Source of the DNA: Podarcis bocagei
Taxonomy: Eukaryota
Direction: 5' to 3' (one strand)
Assembly (NCBI GenBank): GCA_964188305.1
Contig: OZ076897.1
DNA length: 64,000 bases
Each line of letters begins with the position of its first letter. Position 1 is the stretch's first letter. The notes under the pieces were generated by a model. That model did no database searches. It was not told the DNA's origin and was given only the letters and a program-made list of their open reading frames with translations. The position numbers and the translations under genes were made by a program. This document shows positions 2,266 to 18,924 of this stretch, piece by piece.

Positions 2266-3804
2266 CAAAGACATTTAAAGCCCTTTAAATGGGAATCCTT
2301 TAGTTTGGTTAGGATGCTGGAACTTTTAGCTCAGTGAGGGGTAAACTATACTTCCTTGGATTTGGAGGAGAGAGATCAGGTGTTTTAGATTTATGGTCTG
2401 TATGCAGTCCTATACTAAGTCAGATGGTGTGAAGGTGGAGACGTTTATATTTTCCACATGCTCTCAACAAAGGGAAGATGTCAGTCTCAGGAACCTGGTC
2501 AATGCAGTGTAATGTTGGGTAGTTAAGTCAGTAAACTCAAAACACTACTGTGCCCTCTGTTTTGTTTAATCCCCATATACAACTGCCTTACGAAGCAGGA
2601 CAATACAAACACAAAATTTTGGTGATGGGGGATTGAGCCCTGGTTTTTTGGGGGTTGGGTAGCTAACCATGTTCCTGCTGCTGTGTCTGTAGGCCAGAAG
2701 TTGGAGTGGCAATGGAGCAGAGTCTCTCACCAGTTTTCTTAGTGGAGTGACTTCTGACAATCTCCGAAAAGAATTACTTCCATGGATTCCCAAGCACAGG
2801 GATAGACAACCTTTCACCCTCAAGATGTTGCTGTGCTATGGTTTCCATTGCCTTTGACCACTAGCTGAGGTTGATTGGGGGTGGGGTGGGGGGAGTCTAG
2901 CAACATCTGCAGGGTCACCATTTCCTCCCTCTGGTTCTAGTACCTCAAGCCGTGCAGAACATGATCGTTGCCCGAGGATGTGAATTTCAATGCAAATGCA
3001 TTTTACACAACGACAACAGCACAATTCCCCAAAGAAGAGTTGTGTGTGGAACTGTCGATTGAAAGAGACCACTGTTTTTTTCCCAGGATGCAATTGATTT
3101 TGCTACATGGAAGGCACTCAAATTTATTGCCTATTAATTTATTTATTTTATTGCAAAGTTTTGCTAACTTTGAACTGCATTTCTTCCGCAGGTATCGTTT
3201 TTAAAAAGTATTTTGTTAGTCGCCACCACTCACCACTCTCCTTGTGCCTGTGTGTTCTTTTACCCATCACTGCCAATTAATCATAGTCGCTTTTAAATTG
3301 CAACAGCTATTATTTTAAGTCGTGCTGAATCATAAAATTTAGGAAATTTAAATCCGGCTCAAATACTGGTTTTACAGAGAAGCGGGTTATTGAACCAGAC
3401 AACCCGTGTTATTTAAGTACTGGGAAAGTCAGATGATATATGTGTGAACAGATCTTGATTGCAGCCAAACTACTTATAAGGACAAATTCCAATACTTTTT
3501 AAGGGGTTAGAACTGAATCAGGAAACACTCGGGGTTTATTTTTCAGTCATCAAGATGGAGGAAAATATGTTATTTAGCAAATACGCTGCATTTCACAAAG
3601 TTCTCCGTTGCATGACTAACTTCTTTTTAAATTAAATGGCAAGCATTCTTAAAGTGTAATTTACTAGCACAGCTGAATTCCCAAAGGTTGTATAAGCAAA
3701 CTGTAATGCTGTGCAGTGGAATGCACAGCAACCTTCCAACTATGGATAGCATCAAGTCAACAATTTTGGACTAGTATATATTTGCAAGCTCCAAAAATAT
3801 AAAA

Positions 3805-4068
3805 CAGAGGTAGAGAACCTTTTTCTGCCTAAGGGCCACATTCCCTTCAAGGCAGCCTTCCAGGGGCCACATTGGTGGGTGGCATTAGAGGTAAATATAG
3901 ATGGAGCAATAGATTTAGATTTTATACAGCAGGCAAGTTTCTACATACACTCACAACTCAGGAGGAGCATGTGAAGCAAGGCTGGAGAGGAATGGGGTCT
4001 TGGGATAGATCAGGCCGAGAGGCCTGGAGGCCCACATTCGGCCCTCAGGGCTGAAACTGCTCACTCTG
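3805..4068. mobile_element. Degenerate hAT-like MITE
   Basis: Starts CAGAGGTAGAGAACC, has GGGCCACA subterminal motifs and a decayed right end. No clean TSD. Confidence 0.4.
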
Positions 4069-4250
4069 GACACAGGATGTTTTCTTTAGATTCATGAACA
4101 GAAGAGCAGACCCTCCAAATGTCCCTATTTTCCAGGGACAGTCCTGGATTTACAAAAGCCATTCCGGTTTCTGATTTGACCCTGAAATGTCCCGCTCTTC
4201 CTTAGGACGTCCCTATTTTCATTGGAGAAATGTTGGGGGATATGGAGTTA

Positions 4251-4614
4251 CAGTGGTGCCTTGCAAGACGAAAAGAATCCGTTCTGTGATTCTCTTCGTC
4301 TAGCGGTTTTTTCGTCTTGCAAAGCAAGCCCATTGAAGGATTAGCGGATTAGCGCTATTAGCGCTATTAGCGGCTTTTAGCGGCTTTTAGCAGCTTTTAG
4401 CGGCTTATCTGCTGATCAGATCAGCTGATAAGCGGCTTAGCGGCTTAGAAAAAGGGGGGGGAGGGAAAAAACCCAGCAGGAACTCGCAAGACATTGTCGT
4501 CTTGCGAAGCAAGCCCATAGGAAATTCGTTTTGTGAAGCACCTCCAAAACGGAAAACTCTTTCATCTAGCAAGTTTTCCGTCTTGCGAGGCATTCGTCTT
4601 GCGGGGCACCACTG
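4251..4614. mobile_element. Tc1/mariner-pogo (Tigger-like) MITE, family A
   Basis: TA|CAGTGGTGCC...GGCACCACTG|TA, repeated CGTCTTGCG motifs and an internal TTAGCGG minisatellite. Confidence 0.9.
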
Positions 4615-13430: not shown

Positions 13431-14479
13431 TATATGTTTTAAAAGATGCCTACTCTTTTTATTTAAACAAAACTCTCCAGTTATATAAGTTAGTATTTGC
13501 TTCTAAATTTTGCTGATTTTATCCATATATTATTTATATATTTTATATTGTTGTTTATATTAACACTTATATTTTTTTTTGGGTGGGGGGGGTATGTGAA
13601 GCAGCTTATATATATTTTTCTAAATAAATAAATTTCCCTATGCAGTCTTCCCCTTTGCAAGTCAATGGTAAGCTCTCCTTTGTATACCCCCTAAAACTCC
13701 AAACAGAGGCTCACCCTTACTGATTACCCTTGGAGTAACAGGTCTCATAGCAATTAACAAGTTTTCGCTTTTAAAAATTAGTTTGGTGGCATTTCCTTTT
13801 TTAAAAAGAAAGTTCTTGACTTCCTTTTACATCAATTTATATATAATTGCCGCCTCCTCATTAGTGCAGTAGAGAAAGATTTTGTATTTCATCAGCTCCT
13901 GCTTGAACTTGTGTGATCCTGCTCTTTCCATTTAGCTCTCAACACTTTGCAGACTTAAGGAAATTTCATATCTCATTATGCTATTTGTGGAGGTTCTAGT
14001 ACAATCATGCAAGATCTCATTACATTAATTTTCCATTTGTTTCTGGCATGCCCTGATCTTGTAATTGGAAATACTAACAAATGGGGAGTTCTCCAAATAT
14101 GGTGCACGCATCGTATTTCATTCCTCAAAATGTTCCAATCGGGATATTTTGATACCCTTTGGTTATATCGGGGCCACTGGAAGATGATGTGGAAATTGTG
14201 AAATAACGTCAAAAATATCAGGAGACGGGCAGAATTTTGCCAGTATGATTTTGGAAGATCTTTCCATTTTCACAATTCTAAAGCTTACAGTAACCTTTCC
14301 CAATGTGAATTGAGTTCAGCCTTGGAATATAGAGCAAAACCCCTTGTTAGGAGAATGTCTCTGTGCTTGGACAAATATGAAAGTGAACAACATGGGCCAG
14401 AAATGGAGAGCCAGGTTTATGGGACTGGAGAAGCCTCCAGATGTTGCATGGCATGGCCCTGAGCACCACCCCATTTCTT

Positions 14480-15480
14480 AGATAATGAATCACATGGACA
14501 CCTATATTTGGGGTTAATGGGATAAATAAGGCCACAACTTTATTGGTTACAGATGTGAGCGGTATTGGCTTAGGCATTGGAACTGAACCGACTATACTGA
14601 TTCCTGACCGTCATGTAGGTAGTCTTCTAAGAGTCAACCACCAGTAGGGGGAGCCCTGTTGATGTACATCAGGGGTCAGCAAACTTTTTCAGCAGGGGGC
14701 CGGTCCACTGTCCCTCAGACCTTGTGGAGGGCCGGACTATATTTTTAGGGGGAGACATGAATGAATTCCTATGCCCCACAAATAACCCAGAGATGCATTT
14801 TAAATAAATGGACACATTCTACTCATGTAAAAACATGCTAATTCCCATGGGCCGTCCATGGGCCGGATTTAGAAGGCGATTGGGCCAGATTCAGCCCCCG
14901 GGCCTTAGTTTGCCTAGCCATGATATACATCAACTGCGAGCTCCCCCAGGGTCCCGGATGGGGTTGTGGCATGGTCCTAGCCCATACCCAGTCTTCAGAC
15001 TGGATCCACACCCCCGGATCCCTTTAATGGAATACCCTTAAAGAGGAGGGGGAGGTGAAGGCCACAACCTCCCCTCCCATAAACTAGGTTTACCAATGCC
15101 TAACCACCAAGCCTTACAAAGTTGTGATGATTGCTAGAAGGCAGGTGAAAACCACATGGCTGGTGCCAATTTGCCGAGTGGGAAAATTCCTACTTGGGCC
15201 CCTCAACAGGCGACCAACCATAGTCCATAGCAAGGCCAAGATGATGAATGCATGAAAATAGGGCGGGAGATCCAATACAGGAGGAGAAAAAGGAGAACGG
15301 GCCCCGGCCGCGCGGAGGTTTAAATCTGGCAAGCCACGCCCCACGGTTGACCTGATTGGTCGGCCATAGGGTGTGATGCAGCCGGGACTCCCAATGATAC
15401 AGATGGCATCACCACGCCTCCCGCTGTACCTGGGGAGTGCTCATGACGAGCCTGCAACTCCGCCCTCCCGGGAAGGTGAG
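14480..15480 (-). mobile_element. Putative DIRS/Ngaro-like solo terminal unit (non-coding, promoter plus poly(A) signal)
   Basis: GC-rich island. In minus-strand order it has CCAAT (15355-15359), GC box (15333-15342), TTTAAA (15319-15324), a structured body and AATAAAGTTGTGGCC (14530-14544). I found no TG..CA termini or TSD. Boundaries are approximate and the family assignment comes from recalled motif similarity. Confidence 0.5.
14670..14922. mobile_element. hAT (Charlie-like) MITE nested in the 14480-15480 element
   Basis: CAGGGGTCAGCAAACT...AGTTTGCCTAGCCATG with TSD ATGTACAT/ATATACAT. Confidence 0.9.
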
Positions 15481-15519
15481 CAGTTTACCCAGGCAAAGGA
15501 TAAAGCAGAGGTTGCTGGC

Positions 15520-15692
15520 CATAGGAGCCAATTCTTAGGGGCCAAGGGGGCTCTGCTCCCCAATAAAATATTTAAGCCCCCCCCCAAGTTGATGGGCATT
15601 GCTATTCAATTGTACCACGTCATGTGATTTGGTTATGCAAGGCGGTGTTTACCTGGGCCCCTCCCAATATTTTATTCAAGCTGGTACCCTTG
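15520..15692. mobile_element. hAT-like MITE
   Basis: Imperfect TIRs CATAGGAGCCAA / CTGGTACCCTTG and flanks TTGCTGGC/CTGCTGGC (7 of 8 match). Confidence 0.6.
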
Positions 15693-18132
15693 CTGCTGGC
15701 ACACTAGGGTTCTCTATTTGGGCCTTGGAATTTTCCCAGGCCACGCCCCCTCTCCCCAGGCCACACCCCTCATTTGCCCTGCTTCGAATCCCGAGTATTT
15801 CTGCCTGGTTCAGATGTGGCCTTGAACTCGGATGATGCATCTTCATTGTATTTATGGAAAACTGAGAGGATGTGTAGAAAGTAGTCCACTGGGCAAATGC
15901 AGGCATTTGATGCTCTGTCTGTTTTTGCCTCTGGCCCCCACCATCACAGGTATATGGCCTATGGAAGGTTGTCCAGAAGGAAATGGGACCCTGGAGTTGA
16001 AAATGGCTCTAAATTAGTGAAATTCTGCACCATGCAGTCAGTTTCCATTCATTCCTTCAGTGTGCAAACTATCGTTCTGGATTTTGTAGTGCTTTACTGC
16101 AGCAACATGTTGGGAGAATACATCAATTAAACCCTGAATATATGTATATTGCAGCTGGGCACCAAATGCAGTTCATTTATGTCACCCGTCTAGAAAGTCA
16201 CATTTGCAAAATGACATGTAAGAAAATAATTAAAATCAAGCCTGAAGTAGTTTTTTATTTTACTTTCCCTTTCCAAAATTAATGTGACCGAGGATGGGGG
16301 AGGGGGAAAATCATATTTACACTACTTAATATTGGTAGGCAATCTGCTTTCTTTTGTGTCACTTGAACTAAAACCAAACGAATGAGGCCAAGTGGATGTT
16401 TATAAGCCCAAATCAAATTAATTAGCAGTTTCATTCCCTGTCCAGTGTCAGCGGCCAACTATTGCTATACTCATGAGACTGAAAGATGAATGTCACTTAT
16501 TTATATTGTAATTAAGAAGGGGTTTAATTTCCCAGTGGCAGAATTGAAGACCGTTCCACTTTCTCGGGAACCATATGATGAAAATGACCTATATTTACCC
16601 TGTTGTAATATAACACAGATTTCATCGGCTTGGAGCCCTCTGGGTTTTCTGAACTGCAACTCCCATTAGCACCCGGCACCACAGCCAATGGTCACAGATG
16701 ATGAGAGTAGTAGTCAAAAATGTCTGCACCACAACAAGTGGGGGGGGGGGGAGAGAAGGCTGATATAACAATACTGCCGACATAATGCTAATATCGGGAA
16801 ACTGCTGCAATATAAACACTTGTGCCATATCTTTTAAGTAGAAGCAGGTTATAATAGGCTGGTTTTGCCTTCTTTGCAAAGCAACAATGTACAGATTCCA
16901 GTTCTGCTTTTCTAGTAGTAAATATTCTTACAGGATTGTTGGGGGTGGGGGAAATCAATGTGCTTTTTTTTTTTTTTTGCTAGTTTGTTTCCTGATTAAA
17001 GAGTTTTAAAATGTGGTTTTACTCTGCTCTATTATCTTCTAACAGGTGCTGGCTTTCATTCAAATAGAAATGCACACTGAAAGCTTTTGGCCAAGACCAA
17101 AGCTTAATCAGGACCAGAACCCCTTCTGATTCTACCATTGCTAATTTATACAGTAGTACTGTAATGAATACTGCCTTGGTTAACCATAATCTTCATTTAC
17201 CTCATACATCTTTCAATTGAGTTAAGTCATTAGGGGAAAAAATAGATTAAAGAATGAAATCTGCAGTGGTATAATCTCTTCCCTTGCTGAAAGCAGCAAG
17301 ACATAATGATGCCAAAACACAGGGTGCAGGCTAATCCGAGGTCTGCTACTCAGTGAGGTGGTAAAGCTCTGTCTGGACTGTACCACTTCAGACTGCGGGG
17401 CGGGTGGGCAGGAATCGCACGATGGAATACCCTTCCATATCCCTCAAAAGCCCCTCTGCATAAGGCACTAGGTAAGCCTTCCCCAACCTGCTGCCCTCCT
17501 GATGTTTGGGACTGCAACTCACATCCGCCCCAACCAGCACAGCTGTATTGGTATTAGAGAGGAGCGCCTAGCCGTCTCCTTGACATGCTGACATACACTT
17601 TGTGTGGAGGCACGTTCAGTCGTGTGAGAAGTAGACCCCACAGGGAGAGATCCACTGGGATGTTTTTCTGTGCATGCCCCATTACACCGAAAAGTGGTGT
17701 TCCCATTCATTTAAATTAGGCCCCCACAGGAGAGTTTGTTGGTGGACTGTGTCAAAACAGTTCATTATGCAGGGAAAGAGATGTTTCTCCCCACCCTCTA
17801 GTCTTGTAATTGCTGTTTCTGAGACCTTTCAGCTGTCCGCATGTCAAAACCTCAGTGGCTTATTGTTACTGCTCCCTTGCACTGCCCAAAGAGAATGTGA
17901 CTATTCAAGGTTTTCCTTTTTTTAATGCAACTTCTTTTCGTTGGTAATGTTGTTGTGAACAGTTGGGGGGGGGGGGAGAGAAAGTACTTCCGTGTCCCCT
18001 TTCTGCTGAAGGATCCCTTTGCCTTAGTTTTCAGTAGAGAAATCCTTAGCCCTGCCCAGATATCCATATGTGTTGAAAGGGAGGAATCCCATTCCTGACT
18101 TCCATGTGTCCTGGGGTGCCATTGGTATACAG

Positions 18133-18449
18133 CAGGGGTCAGCAAACTTTTTCAGCAGGGGGGCAGTCCACCGTCCCTCAGACCATGTGGTGGGCTGGAC
18201 TATATTTTGAAGGAAAAAAATTAACAAATTCCTGTGCCTCACAAATAATCCAGAGATACGTTTTAAATAAAAGGACACATTCTACTCATGTAAAAACACC
18301 AGGCAGGCCCCACAAATAACCCAGAGGTGCATTTTAAATAAAAAGACACATTCATGTAAAAACACGCTGATTCCCGGGCTGTCCATGGGCCGGTTTGAGA
18401 AGGTGATTGGGCCGCATCCAGCCCCCGGACCTTAGTTTGCCTACCCCTG
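18133..18449. mobile_element. hAT MITE, same family as 14670-14922, with an internal tandem duplication
   Basis: CAGGGGTCAGCAAACT...AGTTTGCCTACCCCTG with TSD GTATACAG/GTATACAC. The CACAAATAA..CAGAG..TTTTAAATAAAA.GACACATTC unit is present twice. Confidence 0.9.
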
Positions 18450-18924
18450 GTATACACCCTCCCTCCATGCATTCACTTCAATGCATATAGGTTCTTCTAT
18501 GCACATCTAGTGCTGTACAGAAATGCAGGGCATGGGTCCTGCATGTGTGCTGTGCATTCAGGCATGGTTCAGATCGAACCCTGGGCAATCTGGAAGACCT
18601 GAGGCCCCTGGGACCAGCAGGCAGCACCCTTATCTACATGTGCATTTACTCACATAAATGACTGAACTATTAATATAGTTACTATGTTATTATTGCTATG
18701 CTTCGTTTCACCATTAAATGAAGATTCATTTCATGTCCTAATTAGGTGAGCTGCTTATTGGTGGGCACAATGAGGCTGGGATGAACACGGTGAACCAGGA
18801 ATGACATCCCAATGAAATGCAAGGGACTTGTGAACTACACAAAGAGTTCTAGTTACAAGTAGGTAGCCATGTTGGTCTGCCATAGTTAAAACAAAATAAA
18901 AAAAATTCCTTCTAGTAGCACCTT

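Follow-up and report, generated by a model that had tools for sequence, protein, structure and literature searches.

What is the stretch of about 1 kb on the minus strand of the window (the whole 64,000-nt stretch of Podarcis bocagei contig OZ076897.1 that was analysed) that reads like a complete small RNA gene? The first-pass annotation took positions 14480 to 15480 for a self-contained cassette, derived from a DIRS/Ngaro element, that acts as a highly structured non-coding RNA of about 500 nt. The motifs that it listed, i.e., CCAAT, a GC box, TTTAAA, a pyrimidine-rich run, AATAAA, an 11-bp inverted repeat and a G/C hairpin at 15043-15078, are all in the sequence at the places given there, and it was right that there is no credible ORF (the longest ATG frame in the spacer and B of eight MITE-free copies has 19-46 aa). 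The question is to which kind of unit these signals belong. We have found that the stretch is almost certainly a decayed solo A-spacer-B piece of a Ngaro (tyrosine-recombinase, YR) retrotransposon (Table 1), and that promoter and poly(A) signal are present because A and B are the promoter and the 3' repeat of the parent element.

The true ends of the unit, 15485 and 14444, fall outside the limits first drawn. Copies end alike at these two positions, with flanks that are unrelated between copies, and by eye the unit has a CAA core at its 3' end and a NAR-like core at its 5' end. The expected absence of TG..CA ends and of a target duplication was confirmed by eye at the ends of other copies (23 at the 5' side, 28 at the 3' side) as well as in the window. 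The unit is also multi-copy, as anticipated: a search of the own genome (1.6 Gb) gave 46 matches to its 5' part, from 40 scored of 5036 candidates, the main ones with 77-88% identity, and a word of 22 letters from the poly(A) signal has 983 exact matches in the genome, a count that includes sister families, against 0 for the control. The edge of the A repeat is identical in the own-family copy L085, and motifs resembling CCAAT, GC box and TTTAAA were recognized by eye in the A repeats of sister families as well. Every lizard family aligned has retained the AATAAA and the GU-rich element. The TTGCA of the A 5' hairpin is predicted to pair with TGCAA at 14448-14444.

Table 1. Features of the solo unit and of the insertion nested in it (window positions).
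Feature	Position	Strand	Basis
Solo A-spacer-B unit, ~790 nt minus MITE	14444..15485	-	Common ends of copies; split-order homology to 3' ends of YR elements
A repeat, promoter part, ending at GGATCT where A1 and A2 contexts diverge	15268..15485	-	A1/A2 edges of sister families
A 5' hairpin, half of the predicted B|A junction hairpin	15453..15485	-	Junction folds in 6/6 lizard elements folded
CCAAT (15359-15355), GC box (15342-15333), TTTAAA (15324-15319)	15319..15359	-	Sequence
Pyrimidine-rich predicted start region	15278..15297	-	Sequence; start site inferred
Spacer, unique to the A2-B2 context, predicted multi-helix domain (helices 1-5)	15110..15267	-	Sister-family comparison; consensus fold
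Spacer arm predicted to pair with 14539-14531 beside the poly(A) signal	15120..15128	-	Helix 6
B repeat, starting at a TGGCGG-type motif and ending in the CAA core	14444..15109	-	B1/B2 edges of sister families; copy ends
11-bp helix, 5' arm, at the 5' edge of B	15093..15103	-	Helix 7
11-bp helix, 3' arm	14570..14580	-	Helix 7
Strand with context-dependent predicted partners	14542..14569	-	Duplex tests
hAT-type MITE, 253 bp	14670..14922	+	8-bp duplication 14662-14669 / 14923-14930
Hairpin with palindromic tip, split by the MITE	14648..14946	-	Intact in MITE-free copies
AATAAA (14544-14539) and GU-rich downstream element (14502-14488)	14488..14544	-	Sequence

The nested MITE had been recognized before, with 14923-14930 included, which is a copy of the duplication and not part of the insertion. 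Its 8-bp duplication and CAG-type ends point to the hAT type. The hairpin that it splits, with the helix 14946-14938/14656-14648, is indeed unbroken in MITE-free copies. A second copy of this MITE family, 85-86% identical, lies at 18122-18456 of the window. Two sites of the unit are repeated landing sites of hAT-type MITEs, i.e., the palindromic tip of the hairpin (equivalent to 14655-14675; L006, L013, L078) and the 3' arm of the 11-bp helix (equivalent to 14566-14575; L007, L008, L019). A common ancestry of the MITEs in the window and in L006 was considered and rejected: the same end variant is found in unrelated MITE copies (L109, L376), and thus independent insertion is preferred.

The linkage to RT-RNaseH-YR ORFs, proposed from the beginning, was obtained from broken copies of the window's own subfamily, first from locus L076, together with intact sister families. 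All 30 YR loci fetched carry patches with 68-80% identity to the unit behind the YR, in the order B-then-A in 28 of them. When 12 young YR loci were fetched whole (10 kb), ten showed A1..B1-A2-spacer-B2 and the other two end at B1. The full order in the sister families is A1-gag-RT/RNaseH-YR-hydrolase-B1-A2-spacer-B2, with an A1 of 212-235 bp, a B1 of 402-436 bp and a spacer of ~165 bp. Closer to the window, B copies 78-86% like its B follow remnants of RT-YR-hydrolase (80-86%), of YR-hydrolase or of the hydrolase (L455-L460, L462); their distance from the window matches that among family members, for which pairwise comparison gives differences of 26% in A and 12-14% in spacer and B. In L456 the tyrosine recombinase follows the RT on the same strand, in the order RT-YR-hydrolase-B, and in L462 a hydrolase end with B is linked to an A like that of the window. 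No intact element of the exact subfamily was found, and a pattern for the predicted B1 edge of the own family gave 0 matches.

The parent proteins comprise a CCCH-gag, RVT_1 and Phage_integrase (PF00589 above cut-off); the named YR relatives are lizard proteins with 53-62% identity. Matches to the GDSL hydrolase are weak (E 7e-4 and 2e-3, both below the curated cut-off, and none for a third protein). The RT-RNase H frame contains YLDD and, by eye, the acidic residues of RNase H, and stops ~40 aa further on; a DPPY/NPPF-type methyltransferase (MT) motif is absent after RT-RNase H in 3/3 elements. Following the classification of YR elements in the relevant part of PMC4157794, a DIRS1-like element was rejected because there are only direct repeats, with neither inverted terminal repeats with an ICR nor an MT, and a PAT-like element because its split direct repeats are accompanied here by a hydrolase and no MT. 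The architecture matches the definition of Ngaro given in PMC9210276, as far as that text was available. Thus, of the earlier DIRS/Ngaro assignment, the Ngaro-type YR solo repeat stands and the DIRS1-like half falls. One young family (L092, L097, L100), with which 15 of the 30 YR loci cluster, has intact YR and hydrolase frames and identical B1 and B2, carries a tandem-repeat array (about 3600-4450) and lacks a long RT frame; it is probably non-autonomous yet recently mobile.

The window unit consists of one A and one B with the outer ends of the element and no ORFs, as a solo AB repeat does. Among 60 loci of two young families we counted 26 full 3' ends, 5 such solos, 5 ends with hydrolase and B only, and 1 fragment; the 26:5:5 ratio is consistent with both halves being left by recombination after insertion. 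The window solo was likely left by recombination between the two A repeats of its parent. Permuted elements (A-spacer-B-A-ORFs-B) were found in none of the 60 young loci (L351-L410) and in none of 19 10-kb windows searched upstream, a weak test as many of these windows are broken. None was seen even though a double-stranded circle would have the B|A junction twice, in identical form. Internally deleted A-(short)-B forms occur beside the A-spacer-B solos (L071, L085, L148/L462, L167).

The stems were analyzed at the level of the family, using an alignment of 10 natural MITE-free copies from about six families of one genome, with a mean column identity of 63%. Spacer and B keep one sense-strand fold across families that are about 30% apart. 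The consensus fold has 77 pairs and -79 kcal/mol in the sense strand, compared with -45 in the antisense strand and -22 to -39 in eight column shuffles. Over the 76 pairs counted, 93.8% of the cells are paired (35-54% in six slid controls), 16/76 pairs show a two-sided change, and all 500 shuffles are exceeded on four of five measures, figures that are inflated because the structure was derived from the same 10 rows. It is very probable that spacer plus B has a conserved sense-strand structure in the family. Thus, the RNA structure first proposed for this locus is supported, as a predicted fold with compensatory changes, for the family and not for the window copy. A G-U versus A-C strand count was discarded, as it is biased by sense-strand folding, and antisense folding was used instead.

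Two long-range helices close the RNA, one between a spacer arm and the letters after AATAAA (helix 6), and the other the 11-bp helix at the 5' edge of B (helix 7). They give little covariation because they are almost invariant: helix 6 has 98.9% of cells paired over 9 pairs, 8 of them invariant, and no covariation, and helix 7 has 1 two-sided pair of 13. The chance expectation for one 11-bp inverted repeat per 1 kb is about 0.1 by our estimate, so that alone it would be unremarkable; we consider it real because both arms are fixed across families while the neighbouring letters change. The first pair beyond it is not better than chance (12/22, p=0.21). Another hairpin of the first-pass annotation, at 14988-15003, did not survive. 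Its letters are present, but it is absent from 10/10 other copies shown and includes three private substitutions of the window copy (14992, 14997, 15001); being private, it is attributed to chance. A C-rich run (CCCRCCC repeats) was seen by eye near the start of the spacer (window ~15267-15255), in lizard elements and in the distant L235, L238, L241 and L248.

The folds also suggest that the pairing of B depends on its context, with one partner for B1 after the hydrolase and another for B2 after the spacer. In the B1 context, the strand at 14542-14569 is predicted to form a duplex of about 25 bp with the last part of the hydrolase gene, reaching up to and covering the start of AATAAA. This duplex is stronger for cognate than for non-cognate combinations (-31.1 vs -28.6, n=22, p=0.0002; shuffled -14.2; antisense -25.1). 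In the B2 context, the same strand is predicted to pair, more weakly, with the end of the spacer (p=0.04 in lizards).

A further property of the parent elements concerns the two B copies themselves. Upstream of AATAAA, B1 and B2 differ by 0 mismatches in 11/15 elements and by 2-14 in the four older ones, and sibling elements differ from each other by 0-9 letters in both B copies alike. In three families this identity ends at one common motif, in a fourth it does so four letters further on, after TGGC, and this sharp 5' edge coincides with the invariant 11-bp helix. The identity and the sharp edge together suggest that the whole B is probably remade from one template, its 5' edge being the place where a polymerase starts or stops; the invariant helix at that edge favours a role in starting or switching reverse transcription. 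Our main reading, to which we give a probability of roughly 0.5, is that the window holds a solo Ngaro piece whose predicted stems are cis signals inherited from the parent RNA rather than those of an independent RNA gene, with a role in the start or switch of reverse transcription. This reading is drawn from sequence and predicted folds; B1=B2 would equally follow from gene conversion or from the plus strand starting at the internal|B1 edge.

A more specific and tentative form of the main reading is that the A2-spacer-B2 tail may be a dedicated primer module, in which a fold-back RNA primer starts DNA at the 5' edge of B, the primer lying in cis or in a separate ~520-nt RNA made from the A2 promoter. 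The parent RNA would begin in A1, pass the poly(A) signal of B1, which the helix with the hydrolase end is predicted to cover in part, and terminate in B2. The 3' part of B2 would fold back onto the spacer|B2 edge, held there by the 11-bp helix together with its neighbours. If the RNA were then cut behind the 3' arm of the 11-bp helix, a fold-back primer would result, much as in Tf1, where an 11-bp RNA duplex is cut to yield a primer that is the 5' end of the RNA. Minus-strand DNA would start at the spacer|B2 edge, copy spacer-A2-B1-ORFs, and then jump via the short 3' part of A, recopying A and all of B1, so that B2 would be a fresh copy of B1 in every cycle. The YR would insert at a 3-nt CAA-type core within the folded B|A junction, and later A1xA2 or B1xB2 recombination would leave the two halves. 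Fold-back self-priming as the specific mechanism seems to us rather doubtful.

To extend the comparison beyond lizards, 80 YR loci were collected in a metagenome scan, 16 of them with B1 and B2 separated by a gap (11 after removing near-duplicates). None of these 16 elements shares sequence with the lizard repeats. In the 11 distant Ngaros, the 50 nt before B1 pair better with their cognate B1 (10.2 vs 8.2, p=6e-5), and the edge-spanning spacer|B2 segment with its B2 (8.3 vs 6.7, p=4e-4), in windows that were picked after an earlier look at the same elements. The spacer alone gave p=0.05, control windows gave p=0.39 and 0.998, and a further window just upstream of B1 gave p=0.017. A perfect 11-bp repeat at the edge of B is not universal, as the 16 distant elements have only 5-9 bp, and 14/16 lack AATAAA/ATTAAA in B; both facts speak against the main reading. 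In several of them the helix extends 8-9 nt into the spacer, and therefore a primer cut would have to fall within the helix. The hairpin at the B|A junction pairs the crossover core in 6/6 lizard elements and in most of eight distant ones, a count made with no shuffle control. The lizard B1 edge has a TGGCG-hairpin-TGGCG motif, which was also seen, with different stems, behind the hydrolase in 5/13 distant hydrolase-bearing loci, in 0/56 distant loci without hydrolase and in 2/69 on the reverse strand. The five loci (L201, L212, L258, L194, L207) share this sequence despite ~30-38% YR identity to the lizard elements. A scan of viral contigs gave 80 loci at 25-36% identity, apparently phage integrases.

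Other roles could be assigned to the same helices. It is unlikely that they mainly govern the choice of poly(A) site, hiding the signal of B1 so that some of the RNA reads through to B2 while other signals serve reverse transcription. The B1 duplex does reach AATAAA in most of the 22 copies and covaries, and the conservation of AATAAA and of the GU-rich element in all lizard families would fit. However, in B2 the spacer arm likewise pairs beside or into the signal, many of the distant elements without the signal in B have context-specific helices, and the sharp edge of B would be left unexplained. That edge could instead be the place where a host tRNA primes, at a short or split primer-binding site, with the cis helix only regulating access. 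In three families B opens with TGG. In all lizard families the acceptor stem of the genome's tRNA-Gly(GCC) (L442) has the same 7 nt as the core of the 11-bp helix, and the B start of the L102 family complements the 3' part of this tRNA over 12 nt (-31 kcal/mol). We consider this quite improbable. In the other families the pairing with tRNA-Gly reaches only -15 to -21, compared with -26 to -37 when the cis arm is the partner; in a sample of ~38 tRNA ends, with many isotypes missing, one Lys and one Cys gene score better than Gly; the 3'-terminal base of the tRNA is mostly unpaired; and the B1/B2 identity begins after TGGC in one family. Improbable too is that A2 drives a separate spacer+B RNA of ~520 nt working in trans as a primer or packaging RNA, and that the solos are or were mobile and expressed themselves, a possibility discussed for SIRE of T. 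cruzi. A2 repeats the whole promoter, B2 carries a poly(A) signal, the predicted fold is closed within the spacer+B span, the young families contain solos of 99-100% identity, and on a young element, at 85% likeness, the read depth is 2-11 on spacer and B and 0-2 on the ORFs. Nevertheless, these reads are those of diverged paralogues, lie on both strands, share no starts or ends and are expected from copy number; full-length forms prevail in the young families, where the two halves are equally rare; and to rebuild a solo, the upstream portion of A and the 3' portion of B are needed, which such an RNA would lack.

There are also two ways in which the window copy could be something other than an old repeat. 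Its promoter motifs and poly(A) signal are still readable, as they would be in a copy exapted as a host non-coding RNA gene, but this is very improbable. Its spacer and B carry 21 private substitutions, 9 of which lie in columns that pair (42% of all columns do), and 8 of these 9 break the pair; one private change, at 15128, is in the spacer arm of helix 6. Private changes thus strike stems and loops alike, with no sign of selection on the stems of this copy, and over all copies the substitution rates are 5.3% in paired and 6.6% in unpaired columns. In addition, the MITE sits inside a hairpin. Single-sequence folding z-scores (20 shuffles each) are -2.5, 0.0 and -0.3 for three old family copies; the two pieces of the window unit that flank the MITE have -1.4 and +2.1. 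Single copies range from 0.0 to -3.4, about equally on both strands. With the MITE left in, an Rfam scan gave one match, not above chance (E 0.83, 18.8 bits vs a gathering score of 80), and a hammerhead reading of CTGAAGA at 14996-14990 was rejected, as its letters are private to the window copy and find no support in Rfam. In four RNA runs, searched at 95% likeness over 6-12% of each and possibly from a species other than the window's, reads fell on the MITE and on a 52-nt piece of B continuing into other sequence, with almost nothing else and none on the flank 13600-14445 or on 15198-15573; the small share of each run and the possible difference of species make this weak evidence. At 14529-14580, runs X23 and X24 each gave ~300 strongly one-stranded reads, which belong to the 52-nt B piece of another locus. 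The earlier expectations that this copy is transcribed and acts as an RNA cassette are thus not borne out: it is interrupted by the MITE, its stems have changed like its loops, and reads are lacking on the flanks and most of the body, leaving its status as an RNA gene unsupported. As far as tested, it is an old, inert solo Ngaro piece. A solo LTR of an ERV or Gypsy element, finally, is suggested by a promoter-to-poly(A) layout like U3-R-U5 and is refuted by the linkage of the unit to parents that encode a YR and carry split repeats, besides the missing TG..CA ends and 4-6-bp target duplication; we regard it as practically out of the question.

For annotators, these solos matter as mimics of complete small RNA genes, with promoter, stems and poly(A) signal. 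If true, the primer module would explain the split direct repeats and supply the primer still missing for an entire superfamily of retrotransposons. The family-level result turns the priming question of the DIRS order into a point prediction, i.e., that in young intact elements of this genome DNA synthesis copies its first base at the spacer|B2 edge, beside an invariant helix.

Among the systems already described, the closest to the window unit are the solo AB repeats scattered in the genome of Cafeteria burkhardae, thought to arise from recombination between the 5' and 3' repeats of its Ngaros (PMC8547959). These are likewise an isolated A plus B and have been compared to solo LTRs. The window unit differs by its unique spacer of 158 nt and by a resolved conserved fold, neither of which is described in the available part of PMC8547959. 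Xenopus DIRS-53_XT resembles the lizard elements in its four ORFs (gag, RT/RH, YR, SGNH hydrolase), the lack of an MT and the split direct repeats, with an A of about 236 bp, whereas its B has 152 bp compared with 400-435 bp in the lizard elements (PMC9210276); the words "solo" and "secondary structure" are absent from the main text of that paper. SIRE of Trypanosoma cruzi, derived from VIPER, is composed of A2, a short exclusive internal region and B2; the consulted part of PMC6681497 calls its origin and mobility open and mentions an annealing model for Ngaro. SIRE is thus the VIPER counterpart of the window solo, in a VIPER-like clade with a spacer of about 30 bp. Polymerase II promoter motifs are not expected in trypanosomes. 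DIRS-1 of Dictyostelium is, like the lizard Ngaros, a YR retrotransposon with a priming question; its cDNA is single-stranded, no primer is known and a 3' hairpin primer has been suggested (PMC7192593, in part). Unlike the lizard Ngaros, DIRS-1 has inverted terminal repeats with an ICR and an MT domain. Tf1 and HIV-1 are integrase-type LTR elements and offer functional analogies to the predicted helices only, in the case of HIV-1 the poly(A) hairpin, a stem that hides the upstream poly(A) signal. A context-dependent fold of B did not appear among the open-access papers listed in our searches, and the original Ngaro papers or the Poulter-Butler review may hold part of it. Against this background, the window copy itself is ordinary repeat DNA of a known kind, and what appears to be new lies at the level of the family: a conserved sense-strand fold, a context-dependent pairing of B, and an identity of B1 and B2 that reaches to a sharp edge.
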